DNA of 64,000 nt. Origin: a virus. Where the stretch lies: positions 408,640 through 472,639 of the IMG/VR virus record IMGVR_UViG_3300046660_000488. One strand, written 5' to 3'. Below the pieces are notes generated by a model, which was not told where the DNA came from, did not search any database, and saw only the letters and a program-made list of their open reading frames with translations. This document shows, in pieces, positions 13,538-63,894 of this stretch (position 1 is the first letter of the stretch; the number at the start of each line of letters is the position of its first letter). The position numbers were made by a program, and so were the translations under genes.

Positions 13538-13545
13538 CTAAATAC
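13538..13545 (+). promoter_or_regulatory. late-promoter-like box CTAAATAC upstream of the tail sheath gene
   Basis: The box lies about 32 nt upstream of ATG 13577. A GGAGG SD sits between them. Confidence 0.45.
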
Positions 13546-13576
13546 TCAAAAGACGTTTTCTCGGAGGTCTTACTTA

Positions 13577-16513
13577 ATGGCTACTCTCGTTTCGCCGGGC
13601 GTCGATGTTCAAATCATCGACGAATCCTTCTACAGCAGCGCTGGTCCCGGTACGGTCCCGCTGATCATCATCGCGACTGCTGCAAACAAGACTGCGGCTT
13701 CGGGCGGTACGGCTCCGTACACGATCCCGTCGATGGCAGGCTCGCTCTATCTGGCCACTTCGCAGCGCGAACTGGTTCAAAACTACGGCGTCCCGACTTT
13801 CCAGACCGTGCAAGGCACGCCTGTTCAAGGTTCGGAACTCAACGAATACGGCTTGGATGCTGCGTACAAGTTCCTCGGCATCAGCAACCGCGCTTATGTG
13901 CTGCGCGCTGACATCGACCTTGCTGCTCTGCAACCGTCCACGACGGCGCCGGTCGGCAACCCTCTGCCGGGCACTTACTGGTTCGACCTGAGCGAGACTT
14001 CGTTCGGTGTGTTCCAGTCGTCGGGCAACGCCAATCCGGGTCTGGCTTGGTCCACCCAACCTGTCCTGATCGCTGCTGAAGGCAACGTTGTCCCCGATGG
14101 CGACACCGATGTCCCGAACCCGGCGTTCGGCAACGACGGCGACTTCGCCGTGGTCGTCACCATGTCGGACAACCTGATCTACGAAAAGATCGACGGTGCT
14201 TGGTATCAAACCGGTTCCGACGAGTGGGCCGCTAAGCGCCCGACGACGATCACCGGCCGCACGACGCCGAACAACATCATGACGACGGACACCATCGTCA
14301 TCACGAGCGACGGCCAGCAATACACGGTCGCCTTCGACACGACCCTCGACCTCGGCGGCAATGCCGTCGTCGGCACGGGCGCGCTGGACGAAGTCGTCGC
14401 CAACATCAACGCCGCCGCTATCCCGAACGTCGTCGCGACCAACACGAACGACGCTCTGGTCATCAAGGACACGACCGGCGCCGACATCACCATCGGCAAC
14501 GGCGCTGGCACTCCGCTGACCACGCTGGGCATCGTTCCGAACCTGTACCGTGGCGTGAAGGTCTACTTCACCAACAACGCCCAGTACCCGGCTAACTCGG
14601 CGACGGGTTCGGTCTGGATCAAGGGTTCGATCCCGAACAAGGGCGCTCTGTGGAAGATTAAGCTGTGGAGCAACACCGGTGGCTGGACCACGGTTGCTGC
14701 ACCGTTCTACGCCTTCAACTCGTCCCTGAACGACGGCGTCGCCTCGAAGGACCAAGCCGCCACGGCCGCCTTCGGCACTCCGCTGATCGGCACGGTCTAT
14801 GTTGGCTTCGACGCCGACACCGGCGTGCAGCAACTGCGTCGCTGGAGCGGCCTGCGCTGGGAAAACCTGAGCTACGAAGCTGGTACGGTTCCGCCGACCA
14901 CCGCTCCGGCCTCGGGCACGTACTGGTACAACGCTGATTTCCGCGCCGACATCATGTACGGCGACGGCACGCAGTGGGTTGGCTACAAGCGCAAGTACAC
15001 CGAAACGGACCCGGAAGGCGTTCTGTTCGCGGGCACGGCGCCGCTGTATCAGTCGGACGGCACTGAACTGGTCGATAACGACCTGTGGGTCGATACGAGC
15101 GACCTCGAAAACTATCCGATGCTGTATCGCTATGACGCGACCGCAGTCCGTTGGAACCTGATCGACAAGACCGACCAGACGACGCCGTTCGGTATCGCCT
15201 TCGCCGACGCTCGTCAGAACTCGGGAACCAATTACACCGGCAACCCGAACCCCGGCACGTACGCCTACAACTCGGAAGAAGCCGCCGACATGCTGGCGTC
15301 CAATTTCGTCGATCCTGACGCTCCGGATGCCCGCACGTATCCGGACGGCATCCTGATGTTCAACACCCGCTACGCGACGTACAACGTCAAGGAATGGATG
15401 CCGAACTACTTCAAGCGTGGTGGTTTCGACGAGAACACCGACTACACGATCACCGACTACCACAACAGCGGTAGCGCTGGCCTGTTCCCGGCTCTGGCTT
15501 CGGCTGGCCGTTGGGTCACGGCTTCGGGCAACAAGGCTGACGGCACGCCGTACATGGGCCGCAAGGCTCAGCGTCTGATGATCGTTCGCGCCATGGCCGA
15601 AATGATCGCTCAGAACGAAGATATCCGTTCGGAATTGGTCTACTTCAACCTCATCGCGGCTCCGGGTTATCCGGAACTGATGGATGAAATGGTCGCGCTG
15701 AACACCGACCAGAAGGAAGTGGCGTTCGTCGTTGGCGACACCCCGATCCGTCTGGCTCCGGGTGGCACGACTGTCTCGGCTTGGGCTGGCAACACGAAGA
15801 ACGCACCGTCCACGGGCGAAGACGGTCTGACCGTCGCCAACCCGTACGTCGGCGTCTACTACCCGTGGGGTCTGGGAACCGACCTGAGCGGCAACGAAGT
15901 GATGATCCCGCCGTCCACGATGGCGCTGAACACCATCGCGTACAACGACCAAGTTGCATACCAGTGGTATGCTCCGGCTGGTTACCGTCGCGGTCTGGTC
16001 ACGAATGCTTCGTCGGTGGGTTACCTCACCAGCGAAGGCGAATTCAAGCCGGTCATCCTCAACCAAGGACAGCGCGACGTCCTGTACAGCAACAAGATCA
16101 ACCCGATTGCCTACATTCCGGGTCGTGGTCTGGTTGTTTACGGTCAGAAGACGCTGCACAGCACGACTACCGCGCTGGACCGCATCAACGTTGCCCGTCT
16201 GTCGAACTACCTCAAGTACAACCTCGACAACATCGTCAAGCCGTTCCTCTTCGAACAGAACGACGAACAGACCCGCTCTTCCGCACAGGCGACTGTCGAG
16301 AGCTTCCTGAACGGTCTGGTCGGTCTGCGCGCACTGGAAGACTACGTGGTTCTCTGCGACGAATCGAACAACACGCCGACTCGCCGCGACCGCAATGAAC
16401 TCTGGATCGACATCGCTATCAAGCCGCTGAAGGCCGTCGAGTTCATCTACATCCCCGTGCGAATTGTAAATTCGTCGGCGGACCTCACCGACGTTTCGAC
16501 GACTTTCGTCTAA
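13577..16513 (+). CDS. tail sheath protein (gp18-like)
   Basis: A 978-aa ORF. The N-terminus MATLVSPGVDVQIIDES matches the conserved sheath start (T4 gp18 MTLLSPGIELKE). A strong terminator follows the gene. Confidence 0.75.
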   Translation: MATLVSPGVDVQIIDESFYSSAGPGTVPLIIIATAANKTAASGGTAPYTIPSMAGSLYLATSQRELVQNYGVPTFQTVQGTPVQGSELNEYGLDAAYKFLGISNRAYVLRADIDLAALQPSTTAPVGNPLPGTYWFDLSETSFGVFQSSGNANPGLAWSTQPVLIAAEGNVVPDGDTDVPNPAFGNDGDFAVVVTMSDNLIYEKIDGAWYQTGSDEWAAKRPTTITGRTTPNNIMTTDTIVITSDGQQYTVAFDTTLDLGGNAVVGTGALDEVVANINAAAIPNVVATNTNDALVIKDTTGADITIGNGAGTPLTTLGIVPNLYRGVKVYFTNNAQYPANSATGSVWIKGSIPNKGALWKIKLWSNTGGWTTVAAPFYAFNSSLNDGVASKDQAATAAFGTPLIGTVYVGFDADTGVQQLRRWSGLRWENLSYEAGTVPPTTAPASGTYWYNADFRADIMYGDGTQWVGYKRKYTETDPEGVLFAGTAPLYQSDGTELVDNDLWVDTSDLENYPMLYRYDATAVRWNLIDKTDQTTPFGIAFADARQNSGTNYTGNPNPGTYAYNSEEAADMLASNFVDPDAPDARTYPDGILMFNTRYATYNVKEWMPNYFKRGGFDENTDYTITDYHNSGSAGLFPALASAGRWVTASGNKADGTPYMGRKAQRLMIVRAMAEMIAQNEDIRSELVYFNLIAAPGYPELMDEMVALNTDQKEVAFVVGDTPIRLAPGGTTVSAWAGNTKNAPSTGEDGLTVANPYVGVYYPWGLGTDLSGNEVMIPPSTMALNTIAYNDQVAYQWYAPAGYRRGLVTNASSVGYLTSEGEFKPVILNQGQRDVLYSNKINPIAYIPGRGLVVYGQKTLHSTTTALDRINVARLSNYLKYNLDNIVKPFLFEQNDEQTRSSAQATVESFLNGLVGLRALEDYVVLCDESNNTPTRRDRNELWIDIAIKPLKAVEFIYIPVRIVNSSADLTDVSTTFV

Positions 16514-16544
16514 GCTTCGGCTCCTTAGTACCTCCGAGAAGGAA

Positions 16545-17033: not shown

Positions 17034-17042
17034 CATAAATAC
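17034..17042 (+). promoter_or_regulatory. late-promoter-like box CATAAATAC upstream of the tail tube gene
   Basis: The box lies about 50 nt upstream of GTG 17093. Confidence 0.4.
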
Positions 17043-19097: not shown

Positions 19098-19634
19098 GTG
19101 GCCAAAAAGCCAACTATCACGACCGGTGGTGATTTCGAAGTAAAAGTGCAGGCCCACGCCAACAAGAAGAAAACGGCGAACGGCGTCTTCACTCCCAAGA
19201 ACCCCGACAAGTATCACGGCAAGCATCCGATCTCCTACCGTTCCTCATGGGAATTGCGGGTGATGATGAAGCTGGACGACCACCCGTACTATCTGGCGTG
19301 GAGTTCGGAGTCGGTGAACGTCACCTATTACCACCCCTATTACCGCAAGTGGAAGACGTATCTCCCTGATTTCTTGGTCAAATACATGGACCGGAACGGC
19401 AAGCACCACATCGAAATGATCGAGGTCAAGCCGGTCAAGGAAAGCCCGCTCCACGACAGCAAGAAATTGCCGAACGGTAAATACCAGAAACTACGTCTGA
19501 ACGAACAGACCAAAGCAATCCGCAACGTCAATGCTGCGAAGTGGCAAGCCGCCAAAGCATTCTGCGATGCCAAGGGCTGGAAGTTCGTCGTCTGGACGGA
19601 AGAAGAAATCTTTCAATGGGATGGTAGGAAATGA
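19098..19634 (+). CDS. PD-(D/E)xK nuclease-like protein
   Basis: LPDFLV...KHHIEMIEVKP gives a PD ... E-V-K arrangement. The GC content is lower than that of the neighbouring genes. Confidence 0.4.
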   Translation: MAKKPTITTGGDFEVKVQAHANKKKTANGVFTPKNPDKYHGKHPISYRSSWELRVMMKLDDHPYYLAWSSESVNVTYYHPYYRKWKTYLPDFLVKYMDRNGKHHIEMIEVKPVKESPLHDSKKLPNGKYQKLRLNEQTKAIRNVNAAKWQAAKAFCDAKGWKFVVWTEEEIFQWDGRK

Positions 19635-20233: not shown

Positions 20234-20272
20234 GCATAAATAGCTGGAACGCCGTTTTCGGGGATTTTACCT

Positions 20273-21052: not shown

Positions 21053-21748
21053 ATGGCGAACGTCTACGAATTCTTCGGTGGTCCGGGCAACCTGAGCAGC
21101 AGTGATCGTGATCGGTTGCTGGCGATGTTCCACGACGCCGGTATCGACGAAGACGAAATTCGTCGTGGCATCGAATTGGATCGCTCCGGATACTGGGAGA
21201 TCGCAGAAGAATTTGGTGGCATCAGCGTCAACGATGCCCGCAACATGGTCCACGAGTTGATCCACAGCCTCCGCAACGACATTGAGGAAAGCTACAACTC
21301 GATGGTCAACGAGGACGACAACGACCGCTACGGCTATGAGAGCGACACGCTGGGCAATGTCACCGTCCGCGACGCTGAAAGCGGCCGTAGCCGCTTCCTG
21401 AAGGGCTCCATTGCGTCCAAGCTGAAGGCTATGCTTGCAGCCCATCCGTCCGGCGAGCAAAACATCATCGCCCAGTTCATGGGTGAAGCACTCGAAGAGA
21501 GCCTGTTCTTCGAGGAAGACGACGACGATTACGCCGGTGAAGTCAACTCGACGCGCGGTACTTACAACTTTCCGTGGACAATTGCCGGAAAACATGGTAC
21601 GGCCACTGCTGATTACAGCGGTCGCGGTGACCCCGATGCAATGACTATCGTTTCCGTCCGAGACGCAAGCGGTAAGGAATTCGACGCGGAAGCCCGTGTT
21701 CTCGCTGAACTGAAGAAGCAGGCTATCGCCTTTATTGGGAACGCATGA
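21053..21748 (+). CDS. hypothetical protein
   Basis: A 231-aa acidic ORF. Confidence 0.45.
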   Translation: MANVYEFFGGPGNLSSSDRDRLLAMFHDAGIDEDEIRRGIELDRSGYWEIAEEFGGISVNDARNMVHELIHSLRNDIEESYNSMVNEDDNDRYGYESDTLGNVTVRDAESGRSRFLKGSIASKLKAMLAAHPSGEQNIIAQFMGEALEESLFFEEDDDDYAGEVNSTRGTYNFPWTIAGKHGTATADYSGRGDPDAMTIVSVRDASGKEFDAEARVLAELKKQAIAFIGNA

Positions 21749-22290
21749 TGGACATGAGAGACCTGTTCGAATCGTCTATCGACGATGAAGAAGACGACGG
21801 CGCGTATCACGACAACGAATCGGATCACGCTGACGCGCTTCAACGGACCGGTTTCTGGGGTTCCGCCGGTGCGGGCCTTGTCTTCTTGTCACGTCGAACC
21901 GGTCGCCTCCTGCTGGCCCACCGTTCGTCTGAAGTCGAGCAGCCCCACACGTGGGGAAACTGGGGCGGCGCTGTAGATCGCTCCGAAATGAAGAACCCGG
22001 CCGCCGCCGCCATGCGCGAGGCCCGTGAGGAAACCGGATATTCCGGAACCATCGACATCGTCCCGGCTTTCCGGTTCCAGTCGGGAAGCTTCCAGTATTT
22101 CAACTTCATCGGCGTCGTCGATAACGAATTCGCGCCGCATCGGAATTGGGAAACCCAAGGCTTTGAATGGTGCGAGTGGGGCCACTGGCCGTCACCGCTG
22201 CATTTCGGCCTCCAAGCCCTGTTCAACGACCCCGCCTCGGCGCGCACGATCAAGACCCTGATCAGCGATTTCCGGTCGCGCCCAGCTTAA
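21745..22290 (+). CDS. NUDIX hydrolase
   Basis: The Nudix box GNWGGAVDRSEMKNPAAAAMREAREETGY is present. The N-terminus MMDMRDLFESS resembles the shared N-terminal peptide of the effector island. Confidence 0.7.
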   Translation: MMDMRDLFESSIDDEEDDGAYHDNESDHADALQRTGFWGSAGAGLVFLSRRTGRLLLAHRSSEVEQPHTWGNWGGAVDRSEMKNPAAAAMREAREETGYSGTIDIVPAFRFQSGSFQYFNFIGVVDNEFAPHRNWETQGFEWCEWGHWPSPLHFGLQALFNDPASARTIKTLISDFRSRPA

Positions 22291-23022: not shown

Positions 23023-24219
23023 TTGGTCGCGCACGAGAATAGCTGGTTTCTCGACTGCTCCCTGATCCTCGGGGACATCGGCCCCGACACCTACTACTAT
23101 TACCAGAACGTCGATCCATACACGGATGACGTGATCGGCAACTATCGCAGCCCGCCGGGCATGGTGTTCGACACCCACGGCGATAGCCTGTCGTATCAGG
23201 CGCTCATGATGGAAGCCCGGTTCACCGAGTGGCGCGCGGCCTTCCCCAAGGCCGCGTTGGGTGTCTCCGTGTCCAGTGTCGAGACCTTCGGCCATGTCCT
23301 ACAAAATCACGTCAGTGAATTGGCGATTGGCGCCGTGAACCACGGCCACCGGCGCGTCACAGCGGAGGTGCGAGAGGCCAAGCACTTCAACCAGACCACG
23401 AAGGTCATGCGGCGGGCGATGAACAGGATCGCGGCCGACCTTCAGGGCCTCGACCGTGACACCTTGCTTCGCATCGACGCCGAGCACACGGCCTACCTGC
23501 AATCGCGCCTGTACGAGCGCCCGCAGGACGTCGAGGGCATCCCGTTTTATCAGCGAGACCTGCGGCCGATCAAGAACGCCAAGGCCTTCATTCGCCGCGA
23601 GCAGAAGCATGCGCGCAGCATCATGAAGCGCAGCATGAAATTCCTCAGCGCCCTGATCGGCGACGACGCCACGCGGATGTTCGTGAGCGGCGACCGAATC
23701 AGGATTGAGGGCCAGCATTGCGTCTACGAAATCCATCGCACCGGCCGCATGGCCTATGAGCACGGCGGCTCCGGCCTGAAGGTGTTCACCAAGGACGAAG
23801 ACATCCACCTGTGCGACATCTGCATCTACACGCCGAACGTCCCGATCTTCGATCACGTCGCTGGGATCGTCATGCACATCAAGGCTGGTGAGGAAGACAA
23901 GATTCTGGAGATCGGCAACCCCTATAATCTCAGCGAGGCCGCCAAGCAGCAGGAATGGCTCGTTCCCTACCTGCCCAAGCCTCGTGTGCCTCAGCCGCCG
24001 GTGGAACAGCCGGACCGGGATTTCATGGGCATCCGCGCGGTCCCGTACTTTGGGGACCTGCCGCAGGTCTATCGCGGCGCTGACCGCGAGCAACGTCTGA
24101 GAACCATGCGGCATCTGATCGGCCGCCACCTATATGACGACCTTGGCCTTGAGCGCTTCGCGCTGGCCGGTCGTGTTGTGAAAGAACAAAGGGCGTTGGA
24201 ACGTGTACGAGTGGCTTGA
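23023..24219 (+). CDS. hypothetical protein (TTG start in the track; the true start is uncertain)
   Basis: A 398-aa ORF. Confidence 0.4.
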   Translation: MVAHENSWFLDCSLILGDIGPDTYYYYQNVDPYTDDVIGNYRSPPGMVFDTHGDSLSYQALMMEARFTEWRAAFPKAALGVSVSSVETFGHVLQNHVSELAIGAVNHGHRRVTAEVREAKHFNQTTKVMRRAMNRIAADLQGLDRDTLLRIDAEHTAYLQSRLYERPQDVEGIPFYQRDLRPIKNAKAFIRREQKHARSIMKRSMKFLSALIGDDATRMFVSGDRIRIEGQHCVYEIHRTGRMAYEHGGSGLKVFTKDEDIHLCDICIYTPNVPIFDHVAGIVMHIKAGEEDKILEIGNPYNLSEAAKQQEWLVPYLPKPRVPQPPVEQPDRDFMGIRAVPYFGDLPQVYRGADREQRLRTMRHLIGRHLYDDLGLERFALAGRVVKEQRALERVRVA

Positions 24220-24424
24220 TCCGGTCGCCGCCATCGACGATGTTCGAGGTCTTCGCGCCGAGCTTGCATCGGTCAAAGCCCAATTGAGGGAAGCGACCTA
24301 CGAGCCTCGGCGTCAGAAAATCGAAAGCGCCCGTGCCCTCCGGTTCCTTCGGGACGTCAAGGGTCACAAGTTGTCGCCTAGACAAGAAGAGATCATTGCT
24401 ATGTGGGCAGACGGTGAGCCCTAA
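24203..24424 (+). CDS. hypothetical small protein
   Basis: A 73-aa ORF. Confidence 0.3.
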   Translation: MYEWLDPVAAIDDVRGLRAELASVKAQLREATYEPRRQKIESARALRFLRDVKGHKLSPRQEEIIAMWADGEP

Positions 24425-24434
24425 ATAAGGGATC

Positions 24435-26572: not shown

Positions 26573-26580
26573 CTAAATAC
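26573..26580 (+). promoter_or_regulatory. late-promoter-like box CTAAATAC upstream of the terminase gene
   Basis: The box lies about 55 nt upstream of ATG 26636. A 12-bp inverted repeat flanks it (GGCTTCGCCACC ... GGTGGCGGAGCC). Confidence 0.4.
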
Positions 26581-26587
26581 TTTGTAG

Positions 26588-28231
<1,644 letters not shown>

Positions 28232-46921: not shown

Positions 46922-46941
46922 GGGTCACTCTCGCTGTTGGA

Positions 46942-48392: not shown

Positions 48393-48459
48393 CATTCGTT
48401 CGAGGGTTCGAACCCCGGACCTCCGCTTCCGCGACGCTCTCCCACTGAGCTAAACGACC
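48393..48459 (-). tRNA. tRNA-like element (D-arm and T-arm canonical; anticodon region too short)
   Basis: On the minus strand: GGTCGTT-TA-GCTC-AGTGGGA-GAGC ... CGGGG-TTCGAAC-CCTCG-AACGAAT. Six of seven acceptor pairs form. Only 18 nt lie between the D-stem and T-stem, where about 22 are expected. Confidence 0.3.
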
Positions 48460-49357: not shown

Positions 49358-49424
49358 ATACCGGTTGGATTCGAACCAACGCGCACGAGCAATGCTCGCT
49401 GCTCTCCCGCTGAGCTACGGCCCT
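49358..49424 (-). tRNA. tRNA-like element (canonical 5' half and T-arm; acceptor 3' strand mismatched)
   Basis: On the minus strand: AGGGCCG-TA-GCTC-AGCGGGA-GAGC ... GTTGG-TTCGAAT-CCAAC. The middle is CGAGC-ATT-GCTCG, a 3-nt loop rather than an anticodon loop. Confidence 0.3.
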
Positions 49425-50477
49425 TCAATCATGTGGGGATTGTAACCCCTGCACCGCCGAACGGGCACGATCATCTACGATCTCGATTTCCATCCTGTTT
49501 CGTCAACCGGTCGTCCAGAACCGATGCTCGAAGCATCAGAGACCCATCACCACTGACCACCCGCATTGCGCGGGTGACGGGGATTGAACCCGCCGGTCTC
49601 ATTCTTTTCGATCCTTGTACTTCGGACCCATAAACGACCGATTGACGGAACAGGATAGAATGTCTTGAACTTTGCATGTAACCAAATCTCGACTATCGCC
49701 GCAGTGTTGCACACCGCGTGGGACTGTCTCCCACTGTTCTCCGTCCAAAAGCTGGCAATACGCCGCCCTCGCATCAAGCAGGGCGTGGGGCATTCTCCCA
49801 CTGCAAATCGGTTAGAACCTGCCCTATTCCGCTCCCGCTGTGCGGGAGGTGGTCATCACCACTGAATTGGTTACAAGCAAAATCCAAGTTGTTGTTGATG
49901 CGAGACCGCCGACCATCTGCACAAGCCCGAAGGCGGCATGATCGTTCGGCGGTCTCGCCTCACCACGTCTCACAATGTCAAAGAACCCTTCCGAGGAAGG
50001 TGTCAGTGGGTTGCCCCGCCAACGTTTGAACCGTATACTTGAGTGCCAAGTTGAAGTCAAGCACTCATTTCGAATTTCGTGAAGGTTTCTTTCCCACCTA
50101 CAAAGTCAGCCTTTCGGCAGTTGCTTCTAAACGCCCAGCCCCGCGCTTCTTAGGGTCGAAACCCTCCACGTCACCCGAAGGTGAAAGGCTTATCCAACTG
50201 GCAGATTCAAACCGTCCCAACCCGTGTCGGACCTTGCGGGCAATTATTGAGACGTACCGGGCCTGCTGATCCAAGTGGGAACACAGGAGGCATCCGCTTT
50301 ATCCCAGACCGGATTATTCTGGTCAACGAGAAAACGACGGCCCCGACGCGAATGCACGAGTGAGGGGTGTCGAACCCCCACAGACCGCTTTCGGTTCCCG
50401 TTCTGCCTGCTGGTCGGCCCGGCATAATAGGTACTACGATCACCCGTGCATTCACGACGAGGCCGTCGCTTCGAAGA

Positions 50478-50756
50478 TTAGGGGACGACGCCGTCCTTGT
50501 ACAGGTTGCGGTCCACACTGATGTAGATCGCTTCCCAGCCCGCGTCGCGCGCCAGCGTGACCATGGCGTTGAAGATGCCGTCGCTGACCGGGCCGCTGGC
50601 GCGATGCTCGACGAACTTCCGCCACGCCTTGGTCGCATCGGTCGAGACCGCCAGCGACGCCGCTTCGAGATCGACGCGCGGCTTGCCCATGGCCGGAACC
50701 GTCCGGCCAATGATGTAGGCCGACGTCCAGTCCGGCTTGGTGACCTCGTCGGTCAT
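50478..50756 (-). CDS. hypothetical protein
   Basis: A 92-aa ORF. Confidence 0.4.
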   Translation of the reverse strand: MTDEVTKPDWTSAYIIGRTVPAMGKPRVDLEAASLAVSTDATKAWRKFVEHRASGPVSDGIFNAMVTLARDAGWEAIYISVDRNLYKDGVVP

Positions 50757-53427: not shown

Positions 53428-53435
53428 CTAAATAC
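53428..53435 (+). promoter_or_regulatory. late-promoter-like box CTAAATAC abutting the first effector-island operon
   Basis: The box ends 4 nt before ATG 53440. There is no SD, which implies a leaderless or near-leaderless transcript. Confidence 0.45.
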
Positions 53436-53439
53436 GCCC

Positions 53440-54081
53440 ATGCGTGATTTGATCAGCCTCATGGAAAACTACATCGCTGAATGGGGCGATGAAGACGAAG
53501 ATGATCTCGATGGCGAAGGCCATTGGGGAGACGACGATGAAGCGGAAGATGAGCACGATGATCCGACTGAATATCGGACCAACGGCTATGACTTCGGCCG
53601 TCTGGGAAATTTCTATCACCAAGTGGTGGCGGCGGCCGACAGCCAGATGGATTCCGGATCGGAGATCGAGTTTTCCGATGTCCAGAATTGGGTCGAACAT
53701 CACGCTGAACTCTTCCAGCAAGGTACGATCACCGTCTTCCGCACCATGCGGCTACAGCATGGCGTCGTCGAGGCGCTGAAGGCTGGCACGGAGCTTGGCT
53801 CGCACTGGACCTACGAATTTGACGAAAGCGCTCTCGATGCCTTCGACATCAATGGTCAGGACGGTGGAACACTCTACACCTTCGCCGCGACGATCCACAC
53901 CGGGCAGGTCGCCTTCCCGCTGACCGTCGCCTACAACTGCCTCTTCCCAGAAGAGAAAGAAATCTACCCGTTTGGCCATGCGTCGCTGACGCTCATCGGG
54001 ATTTACGAGACCGAAGACATGGAAAACCCGCAGCGGGTGAACCTGCGTCCCGATCTGGTCGGTAAGGAATTTCCAATCTGA
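53440..54081 (+). CDS. effector-island protein 1 (shared N-terminal peptide MRDLISLMEN; acidic linker; unknown domain)
   Basis: The N-terminus is MRDLISLMENY. An acidic stretch follows: DEDEDDLDGEGHWGDDDEAEDEHDD. Confidence 0.55.
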   Translation: MRDLISLMENYIAEWGDEDEDDLDGEGHWGDDDEAEDEHDDPTEYRTNGYDFGRLGNFYHQVVAAADSQMDSGSEIEFSDVQNWVEHHAELFQQGTITVFRTMRLQHGVVEALKAGTELGSHWTYEFDESALDAFDINGQDGGTLYTFAATIHTGQVAFPLTVAYNCLFPEEKEIYPFGHASLTLIGIYETEDMENPQRVNLRPDLVGKEFPI

Positions 54082-55292
54082 TGCGCGAGTTCATCCAAAT
54101 CCTTCGTGAATCCTACCTCACCGATCAGATCAAGCTGGACGACAAGCTTGTCGCCGCCGTCAAGGCGCGCTTGATGAAGGGATCGTTCTACGATTACGAC
54201 ATGCCCTCGGATGAAAGCGAGTTTTTCGACGACGTCGAGGCCGCTTATCACAAGGTGCTCTGGAACACGCTGTTCAAGGACAATGCGGTAACGATCTATC
54301 GCGCCGAGCTTCGGCCGCGCGGTCGCAACTTCGGGTCCGTTGGCATCTATTGGTCGTTCCGCCCGGAAGGGGCTCAGGCGATCTATGGGCACGACCATGG
54401 CCCGGAAATCCACGGCGGCGCGGCACTGCGCGAAATCGTGTTCATGGCGTCGGCGCCGATCACGTCGGTCGATTGGATCGCCACGTTCGCGGCCAACATC
54501 GCCATGCCGAAAGAGCTTGAAATCACGCTCAAGAACAACGCGCCGTTGACCTTGGAGCAAGCGGTCGTCGGCAACCGTAAGACCACGCTGAACATCAAGT
54601 CGTTCGCCAGCAACATCACGCAGTACGACATGATGGAGACGCCGGTCAACGAAGTCGAGATCGGTGGTGGCGTCGAAGTTTCGGACCTCGACGACGATCC
54701 GGGCCACGACTACACGAACAAGCAACGCGATCTCTTCCGCGACACCCCGGCCGGTGAGCCGGAGCTTCCGCAGGGCTACAAGCTGGTCAACCGCGTCGGT
54801 GATTTCTGGGTCGCGCAGTGCCTGAAGAACATGGACCAGCACAGTGTCATGTACGTGTTCATCAAGGATGGCGCGGAGAATGCGGCTGGCTACATCGCCG
54901 CCCATAAGTGGCACATCGACAAGCTGAACTATCGTCACGAAAACATCTACCAGCCCATGTTGGGTGGCAAGGGTCTTCGGGTCGGCGCGGTGTACGTGCG
55001 CGAGCAGTATCGTGGCTCTGACCTGTCCTTGGTGATGTACAAGTGGATGCTGGAGAACGTCTGCGATTACCTGATGGCCGACAGCTTGCAGACCATGGGC
55101 GGCGTCAAGATTTGGAAGAAACTCCAAAGCCGCAAGCCGTTCCACGTCGAGGTCTGGAATGGCAATCAGGACACGACCCGCAAGCACCGTCGCGGCAAAG
55201 ACTTCGACCGCGTCTACGACAACGGCTACATGATCCCTTGGGTCACCATCGACAGCAAGTTGGACATCGTCCACTCCGATCCGTACGAGTAA
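54081..55292 (+). CDS. effector-island protein 2 (N-terminus MREFIQILRE; C-terminal GNAT acetyltransferase)
   Basis: The C-terminus VGAVYVREQYRGSDLSLVMYKWMLENV is GNAT-like. The ATG overlaps the upstream stop (TGATG). Confidence 0.55.
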   Translation: MREFIQILRESYLTDQIKLDDKLVAAVKARLMKGSFYDYDMPSDESEFFDDVEAAYHKVLWNTLFKDNAVTIYRAELRPRGRNFGSVGIYWSFRPEGAQAIYGHDHGPEIHGGAALREIVFMASAPITSVDWIATFAANIAMPKELEITLKNNAPLTLEQAVVGNRKTTLNIKSFASNITQYDMMETPVNEVEIGGGVEVSDLDDDPGHDYTNKQRDLFRDTPAGEPELPQGYKLVNRVGDFWVAQCLKNMDQHSVMYVFIKDGAENAAGYIAAHKWHIDKLNYRHENIYQPMLGGKGLRVGAVYVREQYRGSDLSLVMYKWMLENVCDYLMADSLQTMGGVKIWKKLQSRKPFHVEVWNGNQDTTRKHRRGKDFDRVYDNGYMIPWVTIDSKLDIVHSDPYE

Positions 55293-55299: not shown

Positions 55300-55758
55300 A
55301 TGGACATCCGCACCGCCATCAACCTGTTTGAACACGCGCCACCGCCGCCAGTCCGCAAGCACCTGCTGGCGGCCATCGCCCATGCGGACATCTACGGTGA
55401 TGCGAAATGGAAGCTAAGCCAGTTCGATCTGAAATACGTCGGGTTCCTGTCGGTCGAAGAGATCGCTCATTATGACGACGTGCATGGATGGATGGACGTT
55501 CAACAACCAAGTGATTTGGCCAATTTCCGTGACGGCGATTTCTATTTCCCTCCGGGCGAGCGCATGCCGCCTGTCATCCTGATTACGGCACCGGATGGTG
55601 AGGCAGATAGTTCGTCGCGCTTGCACAACGGCAAGGTCGCAGGCGGCTGCATGACGCAGATTGGCGATGGTCGCGGACGCATCAACTACGCTAACGCGCA
55701 CAAAGAACGCCTTCACGTCTATCACATGATCTTCAAAGGCTGCGGAGAACAAGTTTAG
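55300..55758 (+). CDS. effector-island protein 3 (N-terminus MDIRTAINLFEH)
   Basis: A 152-aa ORF in the same operon. Confidence 0.45.
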   Translation: MDIRTAINLFEHAPPPPVRKHLLAAIAHADIYGDAKWKLSQFDLKYVGFLSVEEIAHYDDVHGWMDVQQPSDLANFRDGDFYFPPGERMPPVILITAPDGEADSSSRLHNGKVAGGCMTQIGDGRGRINYANAHKERLHVYHMIFKGCGEQV

Positions 55759-55775: not shown

Positions 55776-55807
55776 CATTGACATGCAGACCGCAGTGTGT
55801 ATGCTCT
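55776..55807 (+). promoter_or_regulatory. sigma70-like promoter TTGACA-N16-TATGCT
   Basis: ttgacatgcagaccgcagtgtgtatgctc lies directly upstream of ATG 55813. Confidence 0.35.
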
Positions 55808-56911: not shown

Positions 56912-57040
56912 AGTCTTTCTCCATAGCTCCGCACCGCACTGATTTGCGGTTTCAACGGAGTCATAGGAGAGGGAGTTATGGTGCTTGACGCATGGCTCTA
57001 TTTAGGATGTGGGCGCCATTGCTGACGCCCACACGGCCCA

Positions 57041-57977: not shown

Positions 57978-58062
57978 ATATATTGGCTCCAAAAATTCAA
58001 GCCAATAGTAGTACAGTATTTACTATACTGTCAACATGAACGTTTACAGTTGTCAACGGTCG
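57978..58062 (-). promoter_or_regulatory. AT-rich promoter region for the GH16 gene (TTGACA-N18-TACTAT plus an embedded GTAAATAC box)
   Basis: On the minus strand: TTGACAgtatagtaaatactgtacTACTAT...GGAGCCaatatatcATG. The composition is strongly AT-shifted compared with the genome. Confidence 0.4.
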
Positions 58063-58316: not shown

Positions 58317-58324
58317 CTAAATAC
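58317..58324 (+). promoter_or_regulatory. late-promoter-like box CTAAATAC
   Basis: The box ends 4 nt before ATG 58329. Confidence 0.45.
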
Positions 58325-58328
58325 GGAC

Positions 58329-58694
58329 ATGCGTTGGAACGAGATCATCACCGAAAGTGAAGTGCCGTGGGTCGATAATGCGACCAACACGTTGAGCGTC
58401 GGATCGACGACGCTGGAATTTGACCTGTATCGCAACGACGTGCAGATCAAAGACCTCGACACGCCGGTCGCCGACCGTGGTCAGGGCCAAGCACGCAAGG
58501 CCATGCTGATGCTGGCCGCCAAAGCCGATCAGGTCGGTGCCAAGATTTCGCTGCTGTCCTACCCGCAGGATGAAGTCACAAAGCAGGGACAGTTGAACAA
58601 ATTCTATCGCTCGCTTGGCTATAAGGCCATCCGCAAGTACCCGGACGGCGACGTGCTGATGGTTCGTCAGCCGAAAACGCCAAAAGGCGCTTGA
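58329..58694 (+). CDS. effector-island protein 4 (N-terminus MRWNEIITES; small GNAT acetyltransferase)
   Basis: VADRGQGQARKAMLMLAAKADQVGAKISLL...KFYRSLGYK. Confidence 0.55.
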   Translation: MRWNEIITESEVPWVDNATNTLSVGSTTLEFDLYRNDVQIKDLDTPVADRGQGQARKAMLMLAAKADQVGAKISLLSYPQDEVTKQGQLNKFYRSLGYKAIRKYPDGDVLMVRQPKTPKGA

Positions 58695-59464: not shown

Positions 59465-59746
59465 TCAAGAGTCGATAGCCCACCAAATCGCTTCGTCGGA
59501 CTCGCGATCCTCGACCGTGGGGTCATCGTGGAAGCCGATGATGTTCTTCTGCTTCATGCGCGTCGGGAAATAGACGCAGCCGCACGACGAGCAGATGTTC
59601 GCATCGGTGATCACCGGGATGATGTCGGGTGCGACTTCCGCAATTTCGGAAAGCTGAGAGTGGTGGATTTTGGCCTGACGGTTCAACGTCGGGCGCTCGC
59701 AGTTACGATTAGGGCAGGGCTTGTTCTGCTTCGAGCGGTGGGCCAT
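59465..59746 (-). CDS. hypothetical Cys-rich protein
   Basis: A 93-aa ORF with CPNRNCE...CSSCGC. Confidence 0.35.
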   Translation of the reverse strand: MAHRSKQNKPCPNRNCERPTLNRQAKIHHSQLSEIAEVAPDIIPVITDANICSSCGCVYFPTRMKQKNIIGFHDDPTVEDRESDEAIWWAIDS

Positions 59747-59761
59747 GATCGTATTTATGGA

Positions 59762-59769
59762 CTAAATAT
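59762..59769 (+). promoter_or_regulatory. late-promoter-like box CTAAATAT
   Basis: The box ends 4 nt before ATG 59774. Confidence 0.45.
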
Positions 59770-59773
59770 TGCC

Positions 59774-60640
59774 ATGCGCGAGTACATCAACATCGTAGAA
59801 TCCAACACCTATCCCATCAAGGGTGGAACGGTTCAGGTCGTGACCCGAGAACTGCGGGGCAATCGCTACAGCTTCACGGCCACGGTCGATGGACAGCGAG
59901 CCGCCATCGGTGAATTCCAAGCGCAAGACTCGATGAATGGCGACAAGGGATCGGTGGAAGAGATCACTGTCGCTGCGGCGTTCCGGCGCCGTGGGATCGC
60001 CTCGGCGATCTACAGCCATTTCGAGAAGATGGGCTTCACCGTTGTTCCATCCGATGATGTCCGGCCGGATGGCCAAGCGTTTTGGAAGAGCCGTCCGCTG
60101 ACGGAGTTGTCGCGGCCGGTCTTCATAGATGAAGTCGATCCGATCTTGAAGAAAGCCGGGTGGACCCGCGTCGGCTCTGGCTACTATGCCTCCGTCTACG
60201 CCAAGGAAGGCGTGAACTACGTCCTCAAGCTGTTCAGCAATCACGACAAAGGCTACATCGATTTCCTGAAGCTTGTTCAGCAGCATCCGAACAAGCACTT
60301 CCCCACGCTCCGTGGCCTGCCGCGTCGGATCACGTCGGGATACACGGCGGTCCGCATGGAGAAACTTCTGCCAGCCGGTTATGGTGACGACGTGCCAAGC
60401 CTTGGCGTCTACCTGCTCTGCCGCGACACCGGTCCCTATGCCAAGAACCAGTATCAGGTGAAGGCCTACGAGCACGTGGTGGAATATCTCCAGAGCCAGC
60501 CGGAACTGAAACGCGCCCTCGACTTGATCATCGACAATCTGCTTCCCAAATACAACGAAGACCTGCACAGTGAGAATTTCATGAAGCGCGCTGACGGAAC
60601 GCTGGTCATCATCGACCCGGTCGGTTTCGTTCGGAAATAG
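59774..60640 (+). CDS. effector-island protein 5 (N-terminus MREYINIVES; GNAT acetyltransferase fused to a protein-kinase-like/aminoglycoside-phosphotransferase-like domain)
   Basis: The GNAT part is EEITVAAAFRRRGIASAIYSHFEKMGF. The kinase-like part has a G-loop WTRVGSGYYASVYAKEG, a Lys in VLKLF, and a catalytic-loop-like LHSENFMKRADGTLVIIDPVGF. Confidence 0.55.
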   Translation: MREYINIVESNTYPIKGGTVQVVTRELRGNRYSFTATVDGQRAAIGEFQAQDSMNGDKGSVEEITVAAAFRRRGIASAIYSHFEKMGFTVVPSDDVRPDGQAFWKSRPLTELSRPVFIDEVDPILKKAGWTRVGSGYYASVYAKEGVNYVLKLFSNHDKGYIDFLKLVQQHPNKHFPTLRGLPRRITSGYTAVRMEKLLPAGYGDDVPSLGVYLLCRDTGPYAKNQYQVKAYEHVVEYLQSQPELKRALDLIIDNLLPKYNEDLHSENFMKRADGTLVIIDPVGFVRK

Positions 60641-60940: not shown

Positions 60941-61422
60941 ATTGTCGCCGGGATATTTGTGGCGATGGTCTTGTCCGTCTCGATGTCATAGAACCGGGCG
61001 ATTACAACCCGTGAACCGGGGCGAAGCGTGATCTCTTGATCGCTATCCCACCATCCAATGGCGCGCGCCATCGTTTCCGGCCAGTTGATAGCCGCCTGCG
61101 GAACGGTAACTTGCATCACGTAGTCGCCGTAATGGACGTCGGCATTTGTCTCGGGTGCAATGGCCCAGTGGATGCCGAGTTTGTTGCGATTGACGCTCGT
61201 CGTCGGCAGTCGCCGATAGAGGGTGACGTTCCCTTCGGACCACGGTTTCAATGCGGCTGACAATTCTTGTGTCCGGCCGACCATCCACTCGTCGAAGTCG
61301 TCAAACGCAAGTTTGTAGTTGTGGTAGAGACCACGAAGATCACCGGGGCCATAGCGGAAAGCATTGAGCACGGTATCCGGCGTAACGTCGGCCAAACTCT
61401 CGTTGATCTCATTGTATCGCAT
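60937..61422 (-). CDS. effector-island protein 6 on the minus strand (N-terminus MRYNEINESL)
   Basis: The start at 61422 lies immediately after GCTAAATATGGG on the minus strand, which matches the same box arrangement. Confidence 0.5.
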   Translation of the reverse strand: MRYNEINESLADVTPDTVLNAFRYGPGDLRGLYHNYKLAFDDFDEWMVGRTQELSAALKPWSEGNVTLYRRLPTTSVNRNKLGIHWAIAPETNADVHYGDYVMQVTVPQAAINWPETMARAIGWWDSDQEITLRPGSRVVIARFYDIETDKTIATNIPATI

Positions 61423-61459
61423 CCCATATTTAGCTGTTTGAGCGTGATGTTCCTGAAGC

Positions 61460-61467
61460 CTAAATAC
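61460..61467 (+). promoter_or_regulatory. late-promoter-like box CTAAATAC
   Basis: The box ends 4 nt before ATG 61472. The divergent minus-strand box lies at 61426..61433. Confidence 0.45.
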
Positions 61468-61471
61468 TGCC

Positions 61472-61888
61472 ATGCGCGAATTCATCAATCTCCTAGTCGA
61501 AGCCCAAATGTACCTCGGTGACAAGGGTACGACTTACTGGAACCATGCTGGCAAGTACGAAGCCGAAATGGGCAAGCTTTGGAAGGAACTGGTTCCCGGT
61601 TCCGGCCCGGCCGAAACACTCGCTGGCGAAGTGCTGCGCTGTGTCTCCAAAATCTACTACCGCCATTTCAATGACGGCGATTCGTTCACCGTGGACAGCT
61701 TCGCGTTCCTGAAGAAGAACATCGGCCATTTCACGACGTACGACGAAATGGTTGACCGTGCGGTCGAATTCGCGATGGACCCTGAGCACCAAGCCATGGC
61801 CAACAACTTCGACAGCGTGCGCGAACTCAAAATCTACGAAGGTCCCGAGTCAGGTTACGACGACGACGAGGATGAAGACGAGTACTGA
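61472..61888 (+). CDS. effector-island protein 7 (N-terminus MREFINLLVE; acidic C-terminal tail)
   Basis: A 138-aa ORF with C-terminus DDDEDEDEY. Confidence 0.5.
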   Translation: MREFINLLVEAQMYLGDKGTTYWNHAGKYEAEMGKLWKELVPGSGPAETLAGEVLRCVSKIYYRHFNDGDSFTVDSFAFLKKNIGHFTTYDEMVDRAVEFAMDPEHQAMANNFDSVRELKIYEGPESGYDDDEDEDEY

Positions 61889-61891: not shown

Positions 61892-62551
61892 GTGCGCGAA
61901 TTCATCACCCTCATCGAGAGCGGCACAGCCGCTGAAGCATTTGACGACTGGTTCGGCAACAGCCGTGTGGTTGATGGTGACGGTCGGCCGCTGATCGTCT
62001 TCCACGGCACGAACCAACCGTTCGAGCAGTTCTCCAAGGCGCGCGGCGGCATGGCCACTGGCCCGCAGGCTGGTGCCATCCACGGGTTCTTCTTCACGAG
62101 CACCGAAGCGGAAGCTTGGGATTATGCCAAGCACGCCGGGAGCAAGGTCGTATCCGGTATCGACCATTTCGAGCAGGAGACGGAACGTCTGCGTTTGGAG
62201 CAGGAACGTCTTGAAAAGCTTGCCCAGCGCACGAACAAGAAATCGGACTGGGATGCGTTCTATGCCGCCTACCAGAATTGGGAAGATTTCGAGATAAATG
62301 CCACGCGCGAGGAAGACGATGTCGGCAACCGCGTCGTCAAGGCCTACCTGTCGCTCCAGAACCCTCTGGAGGTCAATTTCAACGGCACGATGCAGTCTGA
62401 GGCTGGCGTCATCCAAGACGTGGTCGAGAAGGCCGTACGCGACGGCAATGACGGCGTGATCATGCGGAACATCTACGACGGCCCGTATGGCGGCCACACG
62501 AGCGACCACTTCGTCGCGTTCTCACCCGATCAGATTCATCAGGTTGGCTGA
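61892..62551 (+). CDS. effector-island protein 8 (N-terminus V/MREFITLIES; H-Y-E class ADP-ribosyltransferase-like)
   Basis: The GTG start overlaps the upstream stop. RPLIVFHGTNQPFEQFS...GFFFTSTEAEAW matches the [FY]HGT motif of diphtheria-toxin/PARP-like ARTs. Confidence 0.5.
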   Translation: MREFITLIESGTAAEAFDDWFGNSRVVDGDGRPLIVFHGTNQPFEQFSKARGGMATGPQAGAIHGFFFTSTEAEAWDYAKHAGSKVVSGIDHFEQETERLRLEQERLEKLAQRTNKKSDWDAFYAAYQNWEDFEINATREEDDVGNRVVKAYLSLQNPLEVNFNGTMQSEAGVIQDVVEKAVRDGNDGVIMRNIYDGPYGGHTSDHFVAFSPDQIHQVG

Positions 62552-63420
62552 TGCGCTATCGCGAACTCATCGAGGCGGCAAGCGACGAGCCACCGTTCAA
62601 GAAACCCAAGGGCGTTCGCACACCGGCCTTCACCAAGGACGGGCGCCGCATCATCCTGTCGAAAGGTTACATGAGCGTCGATGCCATGATCGACGGCAAG
62701 CCTGCCGGGAACATGCAGATCAGCAGCCCGAGCGACGGCGGACTAGGCTACAGCAATCGGTTCTACGTCAACCGGGTGTGGGTCGAGGAAGAATTCCGTG
62801 GACAAGGCGTGGCCACGGCCATGTACGATTTCGCCTTCCGAGCCGGTTTCAGGCCACTGGGAATGAGCCGCACGCTCACCGACCAAGGTAAGGCGTTCTG
62901 GGACGACCACGTTCGCAAGAAGGCGTCCAAAGGTCTCGGCCGCGACTATCACAGCGATTATCCGAACCGGTTCCACTGGCGACCGTTGCCGATGTCTGAA
63001 GACATCATCAGCGAAGGCAAGGTTCATCAACTGGATACGGGCTACGGTGGAAACGTGCGAATGACGCTCATCTACCAGAATCCGTCTCCCGTTCAAGCAC
63101 AGACAATGGCCAAGAACCAGATGGACCGGTACAACGGCCTTCTGTACCTTCGTGGGATCATGTCCAACGGATCGACGGTCTATGTCGCCGATGGCTGGGC
63201 CTGCACCCATGACGATCTGATGCAGAATTTCTTCCCCGGCAAGAGTGAGAGCGACGAGCGCTTCACGACGTTCGAGATCGCCAACTATGCGGGCGGCAGT
63301 TACGGCGCCGACAGGACCACGTTCCCAGCGAAGGTCGGCGTGGTCAAAGCGGGACATTTCGACGTCGAAACGAACCCGCAGATCGCGAAGATCATCGCCG
63401 GATGCCGGGCGGTCAACTAG
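62551..63420 (+). CDS. effector-island protein 9 (N-terminus MRYRELIEAA; N-terminal GNAT acetyltransferase)
   Basis: VWVEEEFRGQGVATAMYDFAFRAGFRPLG. Confidence 0.5.
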   Translation: MRYRELIEAASDEPPFKKPKGVRTPAFTKDGRRIILSKGYMSVDAMIDGKPAGNMQISSPSDGGLGYSNRFYVNRVWVEEEFRGQGVATAMYDFAFRAGFRPLGMSRTLTDQGKAFWDDHVRKKASKGLGRDYHSDYPNRFHWRPLPMSEDIISEGKVHQLDTGYGGNVRMTLIYQNPSPVQAQTMAKNQMDRYNGLLYLRGIMSNGSTVYVADGWACTHDDLMQNFFPGKSESDERFTTFEIANYAGGSYGADRTTFPAKVGVVKAGHFDVETNPQIAKIIAGCRAVN

Positions 63421-63866
63421 GTCCGGCCGATGGTCAGATGGAAGTGCCGCTTTTCGGGCGGAAGGCCGTAGCGCTCTCGCACGGCCGCAAGTTCGTCGGA
63501 CTCCACGTTAAGCCACCAATGCGCGCCATTCGTATAGATGTCGTGCGTGTACTTGATCGCAATTTCCTCGCCATCGTCCGCACCCCAGAGCGCCGGTGTT
63601 GAAAGCGTCTCGCCGCGAATGACCGACACGTGCGCGCCCCACTTCGAGCGGTGGTGCAGGCCGATCCCAAACCGCACGCGGATCATGTCGGCATAGTACC
63701 GGGCGATCTCGTCATCGACCTGAAGCAGCAACCAGTCGTCGGCGTAGCGCAGCGTTCCCACGACGTCATGTACATACGCGGCATTCTCCCGGTCACGGTA
63801 GGTCGTGATCAGTCGTCCGAATTTGCTCCCAAGGATATGGGTTCCGTGGATGGTGTTTACGAACAT
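63417..63866 (-). CDS. 2H phosphoesterase superfamily protein (LigT / cyclic phosphodiesterase-like)
   Basis: Two H-x-[ST]-x motifs are present: GAHVSVIRG and RHFHLTIGR. Confidence 0.55.
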   Translation of the reverse strand: MFVNTIHGTHILGSKFGRLITTYRDRENAAYVHDVVGTLRYADDWLLLQVDDEIARYYADMIRVRFGIGLHHRSKWGAHVSVIRGETLSTPALWGADDGEEIAIKYTHDIYTNGAHWWLNVESDELAAVRERYGLPPEKRHFHLTIGRT

Positions 63867-63886
63867 GGTACACCCTTAATACCATG

Positions 63887-63894
63887 CTAAATAT
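63887..63894 (+). promoter_or_regulatory. late-promoter-like box CTAAATAT
   Basis: The box ends 4 nt before ATG 63899. Confidence 0.45.

Follow-up and report, generated by a model that had tools for sequence, protein, structure and literature searches.

The DNA analyzed here, which we call the window, is a 64,000-nucleotide stretch (positions 408,640 to 472,639 of the IMG/VR virus record IMGVR_UViG_3300046660_000488; GC content ~59%) that covers 64 kb of an uncultivated jumbo myovirus. Our subject is a short A/T-rich box, TAAATA, that recurs upstream of its genes and in places lies directly against their start codons. A megablast search with 20 kb of the window found no match in the deposited phage collection, and a search of genome contigs with the terminase protein TerL found none either. 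An exact-match look-up of proteins had no entry for TerL or for the sheath protein. The window TerL shared 57% identity with its counterpart in Sinorhizobium phage Phosso, 56% with the one in Agrobacterium phage Atu_ph07 and ~49% with the one in Pseudomonas phage PA5oct, and its best match among metagenome contigs was 74% identical. PHROGs and Pfam allowed us to name genes for the tail sheath, two tube proteins, a head-closure protein, virion proteins and the terminase, as well as gp32-like, UvsX-like, UvsY-like, fibre-like and Dps-like proteins. Judged by the relatedness of TerL and by this gene content, the window is part of a T4-superfamily jumbo myovirus from the group to which Atu_ph07 and the Rak2-like phages belong. 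Between 53 and 64 kb lies an island whose recognizable domains are ART-PolyVal, two GNAT, a T7 gp0.7-like kinase region, a GH16 glycosidase and a cold-shock protein; the first four of these domains make 'effector' island, the label used in an earlier note on this DNA, a reasonable one.

TAAATA occurred 26 times in the window, where 3.48 ± 1.77 copies were expected and at most 8 were seen in any of 100 shuffles. The extended form STAAATAY was present in 16 copies (0.83 expected), and the 17-mer CTAAATAYTGCCATGCG was found seven times (0.09 expected) when up to three mismatches were allowed. To place these copies we used a gene model based on codon usage, in which non-coding DNA makes up 16% of the window; 25 of the 26 copies fell into that fraction, for which 2.3 ± 1.5 were expected and a maximum of 7 was reached in 300 simulations. 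TAAATA was the commonest of all hexamers in non-coding DNA, followed by the overlapping AAATAC and CTAAAT. All 25 non-coding copies face a downstream gene on their own strand, and every one of the 11 boxes between co-directional genes is in the sense orientation. A sequence logo of the 25 sites showed the six bases TAAATA to be invariant, preceded by C (16 sites) or A (6 sites) and followed by C (17 sites). Nothing was conserved from −45 to −2, so that there is no conserved −35 element, and a C-A step stood at the predicted −1/+1 positions. The box matches 6 of the 8 positions of the T4 late consensus, TATAAATA.

The genes that follow the boxes include those for sheath, tube, virion-protein, TerL, gp32-like and fibre-like products, and for the core virion genes the box lies 24–80 nt upstream of the start codon, with an ordinary Shine-Dalgarno (SD) leader between them. 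The tail sheath gene (ATG at 13577, GGAGG as SD) is preceded by two plus-strand boxes, CTAAATAC at 13539–13544, 32 nt from the ATG, and GTAAATAC at 13460–13465. A minus-strand box, ATAAATAG at 13418–13423, diverges from both and faces a minus-strand operon that starts at 13342 with a phrog_527 gene and continues with an endolysin-like gene (12196–13008). Also on the plus strand, the tail tube gene, which starts at 17093 (a GTG with a GAGG SD), follows ATAAATAC at 17036–17041 by 51 nt, a virion structural protein gene at 20273 follows ATAAATAG at 20237–20242 by 30 nt, and CTAAATAC at 26574–26579 lies 56 nt before the TerL ATG at 26636. Two more copies of ATAAATAC, at 33628–33633 and 35507–35512, precede a virion structural protein gene at 33662 (TTG start, GGAGA SD) by 28 nt and the gene for the gp32-like single-strand-binding protein at 35592 by 79 nt. 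Farther along the plus strand, CTAAATAC at 38640–38645 stands 24 nt before a gene at 38670 with a match to a virion structural protein family, and two fibre-like genes, at 39152 and 42491, follow CTAAATAG at 39119–39124 by 27 nt and CTAAATAC at 42420–42425 by 65 nt. On the minus strand, CTAAATAC at 6537–6542 lies 27 nt before an ATG at 6509 (604 amino acids, phrog_8578), and another CTAAATAC, at 315–320, lies only 8 nt before an ATG at 306 whose gene continues past the window end. The single copy within coding sequence, GTAAATAC at 19478–19483 (+), falls inside the head-closure gene (19098–19634), 159 nt before the gene at 19643, and could be either an internal promoter or a chance occurrence. 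The sites listed in the earlier note all exist, within 0–4 nt of where it had placed them, and its list was incomplete by six: 320(−), 13423(−), 13460(+), 19478(+), 58022(−) and 59757(−).

That the box resembles a T4 late promoter, as the earlier note had proposed, is borne out by these features: it is intergenic, faces genes, lacks a −35 element, precedes virion genes and is kept before TerL in relatives. On these grounds its assignment as a T4-type late promoter is well supported, and this kind of promoter is already known in the phage group. The relatives in which the box is kept before TerL (contigs L001, L002/3, L005/6, L014 and L017) have TerL proteins of 55–75% identity and flanking sequences that have diverged beyond alignment; when we attempted to align the TerL upstream regions, they were too divergent to reveal anything beyond the box itself. 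TAAATA was also over-represented in several relatives with a GC content above 55%. In the Rak2-like phages CBB and GAP32, which belong to the same superclade, structural genes are preceded by an ATAAATA motif with the same core, and a gp55-like sigma factor has been reported, the motif having been found by MEME as an upstream motif only, with no close-spaced or leaderless arrangement reported (PMC5259590). The late sigma factor annotated in Atu_ph07, gp694, has 3069 metagenome homologues. A single-protein scan for gp55 matched only Atu_ph07 itself; among the matches listed in profile scans, one gp55 homologue is encoded on a contig of 57% GC that shares its metagenome with relative L002. Orthologues of gp33 have been reported for group 2 jumbo phages. 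The box would thus act, in the form [C/A]TAAATA[C], as the −10-like element of phage late promoters that, as in T4, have no −35 element, and it is probably read by the host RNA polymerase together with a phage gp55-type late sigma factor.

Where such a promoter would start transcription can be predicted from T4. Cryo-electron microscopy of the open complex with T4 gp55 shows adenines −12, −9 and −8 inserted into protein pockets; TATAAATA therefore spans −13 to −6, and TAAATA plus 5 nt puts the next base at +1. Nine sites in the window have the box 4 or 5 nt from an ATG, and at all of them except the single 4-nt case the A of the ATG falls at this predicted +1. The 5-nt spacing, the modal one in the window, is found at ATGs 53440, 58329, 59774, 61472 and 63899 on the plus strand and at 59746, 43791 and 56993 on the minus strand, and the 4-nt spacing at 61422(−). 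The earlier note had described the box as lying exactly 4 nt before the ATG in its longer form, which is equivalent to TAAATA-N5-ATG; this held at five plus-strand sites, and 61422(−) is one base shorter.

All but one of these nine sites lie in the island. Three plus-strand boxes there are followed by cgccc and ATG 53440 (53429–53466, opening a 213-amino-acid protein), by cggac and ATG 58329 (58318–58361, 121 amino acids) and by ttgcc and ATG 63899 (63888–64000, a gene that runs past the window end). Four of the others form two divergent pairs. In the first (59746–59776), the two ATGs are 27 bp apart, reading CAT-gatcg-TATTTA-tggac-TAAATA-ttgcc-ATG, with a minus-strand gene of 93 amino acids on the left (59465–59746) and a plus-strand gene on the right (59774–60640) that has GNAT and T7 gp0.7-like kinase regions. 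In the second (61420–61474), 49 bp separate ATG 61422(−), 4 nt from its box at 61427–61432(−) and opening a 161-amino-acid protein, from ATG 61472(+), 5 nt from its box at 61461–61466(+) and opening a 138-amino-acid protein. The gaps of both pairs consist almost entirely of the two boxes. A further minus-strand copy, CTAAATAG followed by gagcc and ATGCGT (56976–57004), opens only the short frame MRQAP-stop. Outside the island, CTAAATAC at 43797–43802(−) lies 5 nt before ATG 43791 of the Dps-like gene (43348–43791), which is likewise predicted to be leaderless. An SD core was found upstream of none of the seven complete box-adjacent genes and upstream of 30 of 73 other genes, in agreement with the earlier note, which had seen none at the starts in the island. 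For Dps and six or seven island genes, transcription would then begin on, or within 1–2 nt of, the A of the AUG, so that a box 4–5 nt from the ATG would give leaderless mRNAs and, it would follow, leaderless translation. At a 7-nt spacing, CTAAATAA at 24422–24427(+) precedes ATG 24435 (359 amino acids, phrog_29287), whose transcript would be near-leaderless. A 73-codon open reading frame (ORF) at 24203–24424(+) ends on the TAA of that box.

The arrangement is not confined to the window. We surveyed 1.2 Mb from 80 related viral contigs, taken from around their terminase genes, counting distinct sites before ORFs of at least 80 codons, and found TAAATA at 4, 5, 6 and 7 nt from an ATG at 22, 82, 11 and 35 sites, respectively, and at 0–4 sites for every other distance between 0 and 12. 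The 5-nt spacing was thus modal in the relatives too, with 82 of 150 sites. GTG and TTG starts contributed only nine sites at distances of 4–7. Control hexamers not overlapping the box gave no comparable peak; those overlapping it by five bases (ATAAAT and AAATAT) gave the same peak shifted by one base, and AATATA gave a minor peak at a distance of 5. In orthologues of core genes, terminase among them, the length of the short spacer was kept while its sequence varied. The terminase of L017, a 500-kb contig of 57% GC, itself has TAAATA-tttca-ATG (9968–9984, plus strand), so that terminase is leadered in the window and apparently leaderless in that relative. This lineage-wide spacing is, among the sequence arguments, the strongest point for leaderless transcripts. 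An exact search with the 17-mer matched four viral contigs, none related to the window. In unrelated viral contigs of 46–47% GC (L081, 1146–1162 on the minus strand, and L084, 2071–2087 on the minus strand), the identical 17-mer CTAAATATTGCCATGCG opens a 114-amino-acid Cys-rich ORF (MRPVCQACDQRPC...), and the box-plus-ATG arrangement thus occurs outside the window's lineage too.

One box precedes a gene that is not translated into a protein of its own. The '7829 gene' of the earlier note, a 65-amino-acid ORF, is not a protein gene: the region (7763–8099, minus strand) encodes a two-piece, permuted transfer-messenger RNA (tmRNA) of alphaproteobacterial type, with covariance scores of 114 bits for RF01849 (threshold 50) and 121.7 bits for RF04321 (threshold 47) and the tag ANDNVAMDYAVAA. 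The box TTAAATAC at 8061–8066(−) is followed by 5 nt and then by position 1 of the tmRNA model at 8055, the same predicted +1 as at the close-spaced ATGs. The location of the tmRNA directly 3′ of a late-type box suggests that it is expressed late, and its type indicates that the host is probably an alphaproteobacterium.

In the island, the bases after the ATG encode an N-terminal tag of ~9–10 residues with the consensus MR(E/D)(F/Y/L)I(N/S/Q/T)(L/I)(M/V/I/L)E. Directly after their boxes, the genes at 53440, 59774, 61472 and 63899 begin with MRDLISLME, MREYINIVE, MREFINLLVE and MRDLINIME, and those at 58329 and 61422(−) with the variants MRWNEIITESE and MRYNEINES. Four further plus-strand genes have the tag, or something like it, and no box: a 403-amino-acid protein with MREFIQILRE (54081–54110, its start overlapping the previous stop codon), a 152-amino-acid protein with the divergent, tag-like MDIRTAINLFE (55300–55332), the ART-PolyVal ADP-ribosyltransferase with (V/M)REFITLIE (61892–62551, beginning with GTG 3 nt past the stop of the gene before it) and a GNAT acetyltransferase with the variant MRYRELIEA (62551–63420, its start overlapping the previous stop). 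The nine proteins in the window, together with a tenth that is cut by the window end, have only their first ~10 residues in common, and the same was true of 10 proteins from relatives, whose tags also directly follow boxes of their own (for example MRDLINILNE, MRNLINLLED and MRNFIDIIEG). When we trimmed 12 residues from 21 tagged proteins of the window and the relatives, any similarity was left in only 3 of 210 pairs; the tag is common to otherwise unrelated proteins. Pfam, PHROGs and NCBIfam searches with the relatives' tagged proteins and with island proteins lacking an assignment were uninformative, and the island gene at 59774 had no relatives among the viral contigs. The protein encoded at 53440–54081(+) has an extremely acidic stretch after its tag (DEDEDDLDGEGHWGDDDEAEDEHDD) and no family match; the acidic stretch recalls DNA mimics or anti-restriction proteins.

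The Arg, Glu, Asn and Leu codons of the tag differ synonymously between copies, and selection therefore acts on the protein. The earlier note had instead taken the conserved ATGCG after the box for an element acting at the DNA or RNA level. That interpretation is mostly wrong, for ATGCG encodes the Met-Arg of the tag, and we rejected a non-coding element on the strength of the synonymous variation and of the tags on the box-less genes 54081, 61892 and 62551. Because there are boxes with no tag (at the structural genes, Dps, 59746 and the tmRNA gene) and tags with no box (the same three genes), promoter and tag are two separable elements that abut in the island. The observation behind the note's argument, a 5-codon frame at 56993(−), is real: ATGCGT is followed by CAA GCA CCA TAA, and an SD-led 61-amino-acid gene starts 82 nt downstream, at 56911. 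This copy can be explained equally well as the remnant of a lost or replaced tagged gene (a decayed or recombinant cassette), as a 5′-terminal mini-ORF on a leadered transcript, or by a preference of the promoter for a particular initially transcribed sequence, and a single copy does not outweigh the coding evidence for the tag.

What the tag may do is suggested by T4. The T4 capsid targeting sequence comprises the first 10 residues of IPIII (MKTYQEFIAE) and is enough for packaging; residues 4 and 7 act in targeting, residues 8 and 10 act in processing, and gp21 cuts after L/I-X-E. The T4 internal proteins share nothing but this targeting tag, and the packaged ADP-ribosyltransferase Alt loses a 7-residue propeptide. 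The island proteins resemble IPI–III and Alt in having a ~10-residue N-terminal peptide on unrelated proteins, a basic residue 2, hydrophobic residues near 4 and 7, an (L/I)-x-E end, an ADP-ribosyltransferase among the cargo and late expression, which for the island is predicted. They differ in the peptide itself (MREFINLIE against MKTYQEFIAE) and in their broader cargo, which takes in GNAT, kinase-like and other, unassigned proteins. Injection of ART, GNAT and kinase-like enzymes with phage DNA is known or predicted and has been reviewed for Alt and for polyvalent proteins, and late production of host-modifying enzymes is biologically sensible only if these reach the next cell. From the likeness to the T4 sequence, the late host-modifying enzymes and the presence of a gp21 homologue (CBB_255) in the same superclade, we infer that the tag targets proteins to the capsid, a prediction to which we give slightly better than even odds. 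Under it, the tag would load the late-made ADP-ribosyltransferase, acetyltransferases, kinase-like protein and other proteins without an assigned function into the prohead, the prohead protease would cut the tag after (L/I)-x-E, and the enzymes would be injected in the next infection. A NUDIX hydrolase gene in the virion gene block (21745–22290, plus strand) has the N terminus MMDMRDLFES, which reads as a tag (MRDLFE) from Met4; its product may be another packaged enzyme.

We put the probability of the reading as a whole, in which the box is a late promoter, the island and Dps mRNAs are leaderless and the tag resembles a capsid targeting sequence, at about 0.68. Its new part, leaderless transcripts from boxes 4–5 nt from the ATG in a large uncultivated clade, has several independent arguments from sequence in its favour (the spacing in the window, the missing SD cores, the tight divergent gaps and the lineage-wide peak), and these support it more strongly than the author of the earlier note, who had proposed leaderless or near-leaderless transcripts, could know. 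Several observations weigh against the reading. No gp55, gp33 or gp45 gene lies within the 64-kb window; of the sigma factor and co-activator genes that the earlier note had suggested looking for in the genome, gp55 has been found in relatives and gp33 reported for the group. Because −12 is mostly C here (16 of 25 sites) and T4 gp55 puts A-12 into a pocket, the specificity of the sigma factor must differ from that of T4 gp55. All box-adjacent starts are ATG, with GTG or TTG making up 25% of the other starts in the window, and this is weak support for leaderless initiation, as non-ATG starts are rare in the low-GC relatives and the window alone gives P ~0.08. In the relatives, the TAA of the box doubles as the stop codon of a long upstream ORF at 34 of 158 close-spaced sites; genome compaction adds to some of these sites without explaining the peak. 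Close-spaced boxes and tags were looked for in the cultured relatives, in 100 kb of the 128 kb at hand for Atu_ph07 and in 41 kb each of Phosso and PA5oct. The boxes there lie 20–60 nt upstream of genes with an SD and almost no site is close-spaced, the PA5oct segment having one with a 5-nt spacer; from these phages and from the leadered core virion genes of the window, close spacing is variable within the phage group. As for the tag, the (L/I)-x-E ending at residues 8–11 is present in all nine tagged window proteins and in 2 of 71 others, in a test that is partly circular because the tagged set was picked by N-terminal similarity. No gene for a gp21-family prohead protease lies within the window, and no tag was seen in the 100 kb of Atu_ph07. 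We found no tagged homologue in relatives with a known virion proteome, and because the pattern is all but missing from the scanned parts of Atu_ph07, Phosso and PA5oct, their virion proteomes cannot bear on the capsid-targeting idea.

The compaction just mentioned is part of an alternative in which the box is still a late promoter and the abutting genes are not leaderless, being translated instead from longer upstream transcripts through SD-less initiation or coupling; adjacency would then reflect compaction, and the box would serve genes farther downstream or act as a redundant internal promoter. The doubling of box and stop codon at those 34 sites fits this account, as do the 7–8-nt spacings that occur as well and the three tagged genes that are evidently expressed without a box or SD of their own, coupled to the preceding gene. 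However, the divergent pairs have no same-strand upstream gene to supply a longer transcript, their 27- and 49-bp gaps amounting to two boxes, and compaction alone would not be expected to produce a sharp peak at 5 nt (then at 4 and 7) over 150 sites with the spacer length kept and its sequence varying. We therefore consider it unlikely, although it is to be taken seriously. That the box merely reflects the composition of intergenic DNA, as a functionless by-product of its A/T-richness, draws on the 54% GC of the non-coding DNA against 59% for the whole window, and is effectively refuted by the more than tenfold excess of copies there (25 against 2.3), by the uniform sense orientation between co-directional genes and by the conservation of the box in relatives.

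Two further alternatives assign the box to a different machinery. The host primary sigma factor could recognize it as a promoter with a −10 element only, or it could be the operator of a phage DNA-binding regulator, with no gp55-type factor involved, and the departure of −12 from the T4 consensus, together with the missing gp55 and gp33 genes in the window, would suit this. Against it, TAAATA lacks the critical T at −7 of a sigma-70 −10 element and comes with neither a −35 element nor a TG extension, sigma-70 geometry would put +1 one base beyond the A of the ATG, gp55 homologues exist in the cultured relatives examined (Atu_ph07 and CBB) and are abundant in metagenomes, and separate sigma-70-like promoters are found elsewhere in the island. 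We regard this account as improbable. It is about as improbable, in our judgment, that the box acts in the RNA, whether by standing in for the SD as an A/U-rich translation enhancer or ribosome-landing site or as a site at which an endoribonuclease trims transcripts to leaderless form. Such a role would accord with an A/U-rich box directly 5′ of starts that lack an SD, but the same box is found 24–80 nt upstream of structural genes with an SD of their own and also before the non-coding tmRNA gene, and it is a fixed hexamer matching the T4 late −10 element rather than a loose A/U-rich tract.

The sigma-70-like promoters of the island are TTGACA-16-TATGCT at 55778–55805(+) and TTGACA-18-TACTAT at 58034–58005(−), and they precede two untagged island genes, those at 55801 and for the GH16 glycosidase. 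Going by these two promoters, the island is one that mixes two promoter classes. The GH16 gene (ATG 57976, with a signal-peptide-like N terminus) also has a late box, GTAAATAC at 58017–58022(−), 40 nt before its ATG, which sits inside the spacer of its sigma-70-like promoter. A different element was seen upstream of small genes starting at 2504 and 3075, which share GTAGAGTGTG(C/A)TA(A/G)TCTG (2532–2544 and 3103–3115, both minus strand) at a distance of ~28–40 nt; TGcTATGAT, which is similar, precedes 3483. This element looks like an extended −10 (TGnTAnnnT) and presumably belongs to a different, early or middle, class. In two other places the window has features related to translation. A class II aminoacyl-tRNA-synthetase-like gene (8550–9827, minus strand), an addition to the translation-related cargo of the phage, adjoins the tmRNA gene; it matches phrog_16140, for which no function is given (8.5e-145), and weakly matches the histidyl-tRNA-synthetase family phrog_4806 (7.3e-08), and our own reading of its N terminus, with no tool result behind it, may point to a seryl enzyme. 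Some 3.5 kb at 46920–50480 have no convincing ORF and contain weak tRNA-like matches on the minus strand at 48393–48459, 48791–48860 (anticodon undetermined) and 49361–49420; this region may be a degenerate array of tRNAs or non-coding RNAs.

Compared with T4 late promoters, which work with gp55, gp33 and the gp45 sliding clamp, the promoters described here share a −10-like A/T box that ends at −6, the lack of a −35 element and a position before virion genes and a gp32-type gene. They differ in that the six bases TAAATA are fixed, in that −12 is mostly C rather than A, and in that some boxes abut the start codon. T4 late mRNAs have SD leaders, and we know of no late box in T4 that abuts a start codon. 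A literature search, whose coverage was incomplete, turned up no description of leaderless late genes among T4-superfamily or Rak2-like phages. The arrangement itself has parallels elsewhere. In Deinococcus-Thermus, −10 elements adjoin ORFs and give leaderless genes, an arrangement that is, as here, widespread across the genome (PMC12340547), and the same source describes leaderless genes whose ORFs adjoin a −10 element in the Thermus phage phiYS40 (Sevostyanova et al., 2007, as cited in PMC12340547). In these systems, and for lambda cI transcribed from PRM, the −10 element lies a fixed few bases from the ATG and there is no SD, as in the window; they use the −10 element of the primary sigma factor (TANNNT), whereas the box of this T4-superfamily jumbo phage is a T4-late-type element. 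The tagged proteins in turn recall the polyvalent, injected effectors, with which they share ART-PolyVal and GNAT domains and signals of late or virion-linked expression (Iyer et al., 2017, PMC5512222), and from which they differ in being separate small tagged proteins that are neither parts of one large polypeptide nor joined to MuF or portal domains.

Identifying the promoter is in itself ordinary for this phage group. If the genes that abut it do lack leaders, gene callers that depend on ribosome-binding sites would misplace starts across a large and mostly uncultivated branch of T4-like jumbo phages (a first-pass gene model missed the start at 53440, which has a box and a 5-nt spacer), and the late regulon could be read straight from sequence. 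More tentatively, and with rather less confidence than an even chance would warrant, we suggest that a late box, 5 nt and an AUG with a 9–10-residue tag form a portable cassette of ~35 bp that would make any new ORF a packaged, injected effector, leaderless expression being the normal late mode in the clade. If MR(E/D)xIxxxE is a capsid-targeting tag, it would be a candidate for loading foreign proteins into such capsids, as has been done with the T4 capsid targeting sequence. It would also permit the proteins that are injected with jumbo phage DNA to be listed from sequence alone, a list that in this phage would comprise an ADP-ribosyltransferase, acetyltransferases, a kinase-like protein and several proteins without an assigned function.

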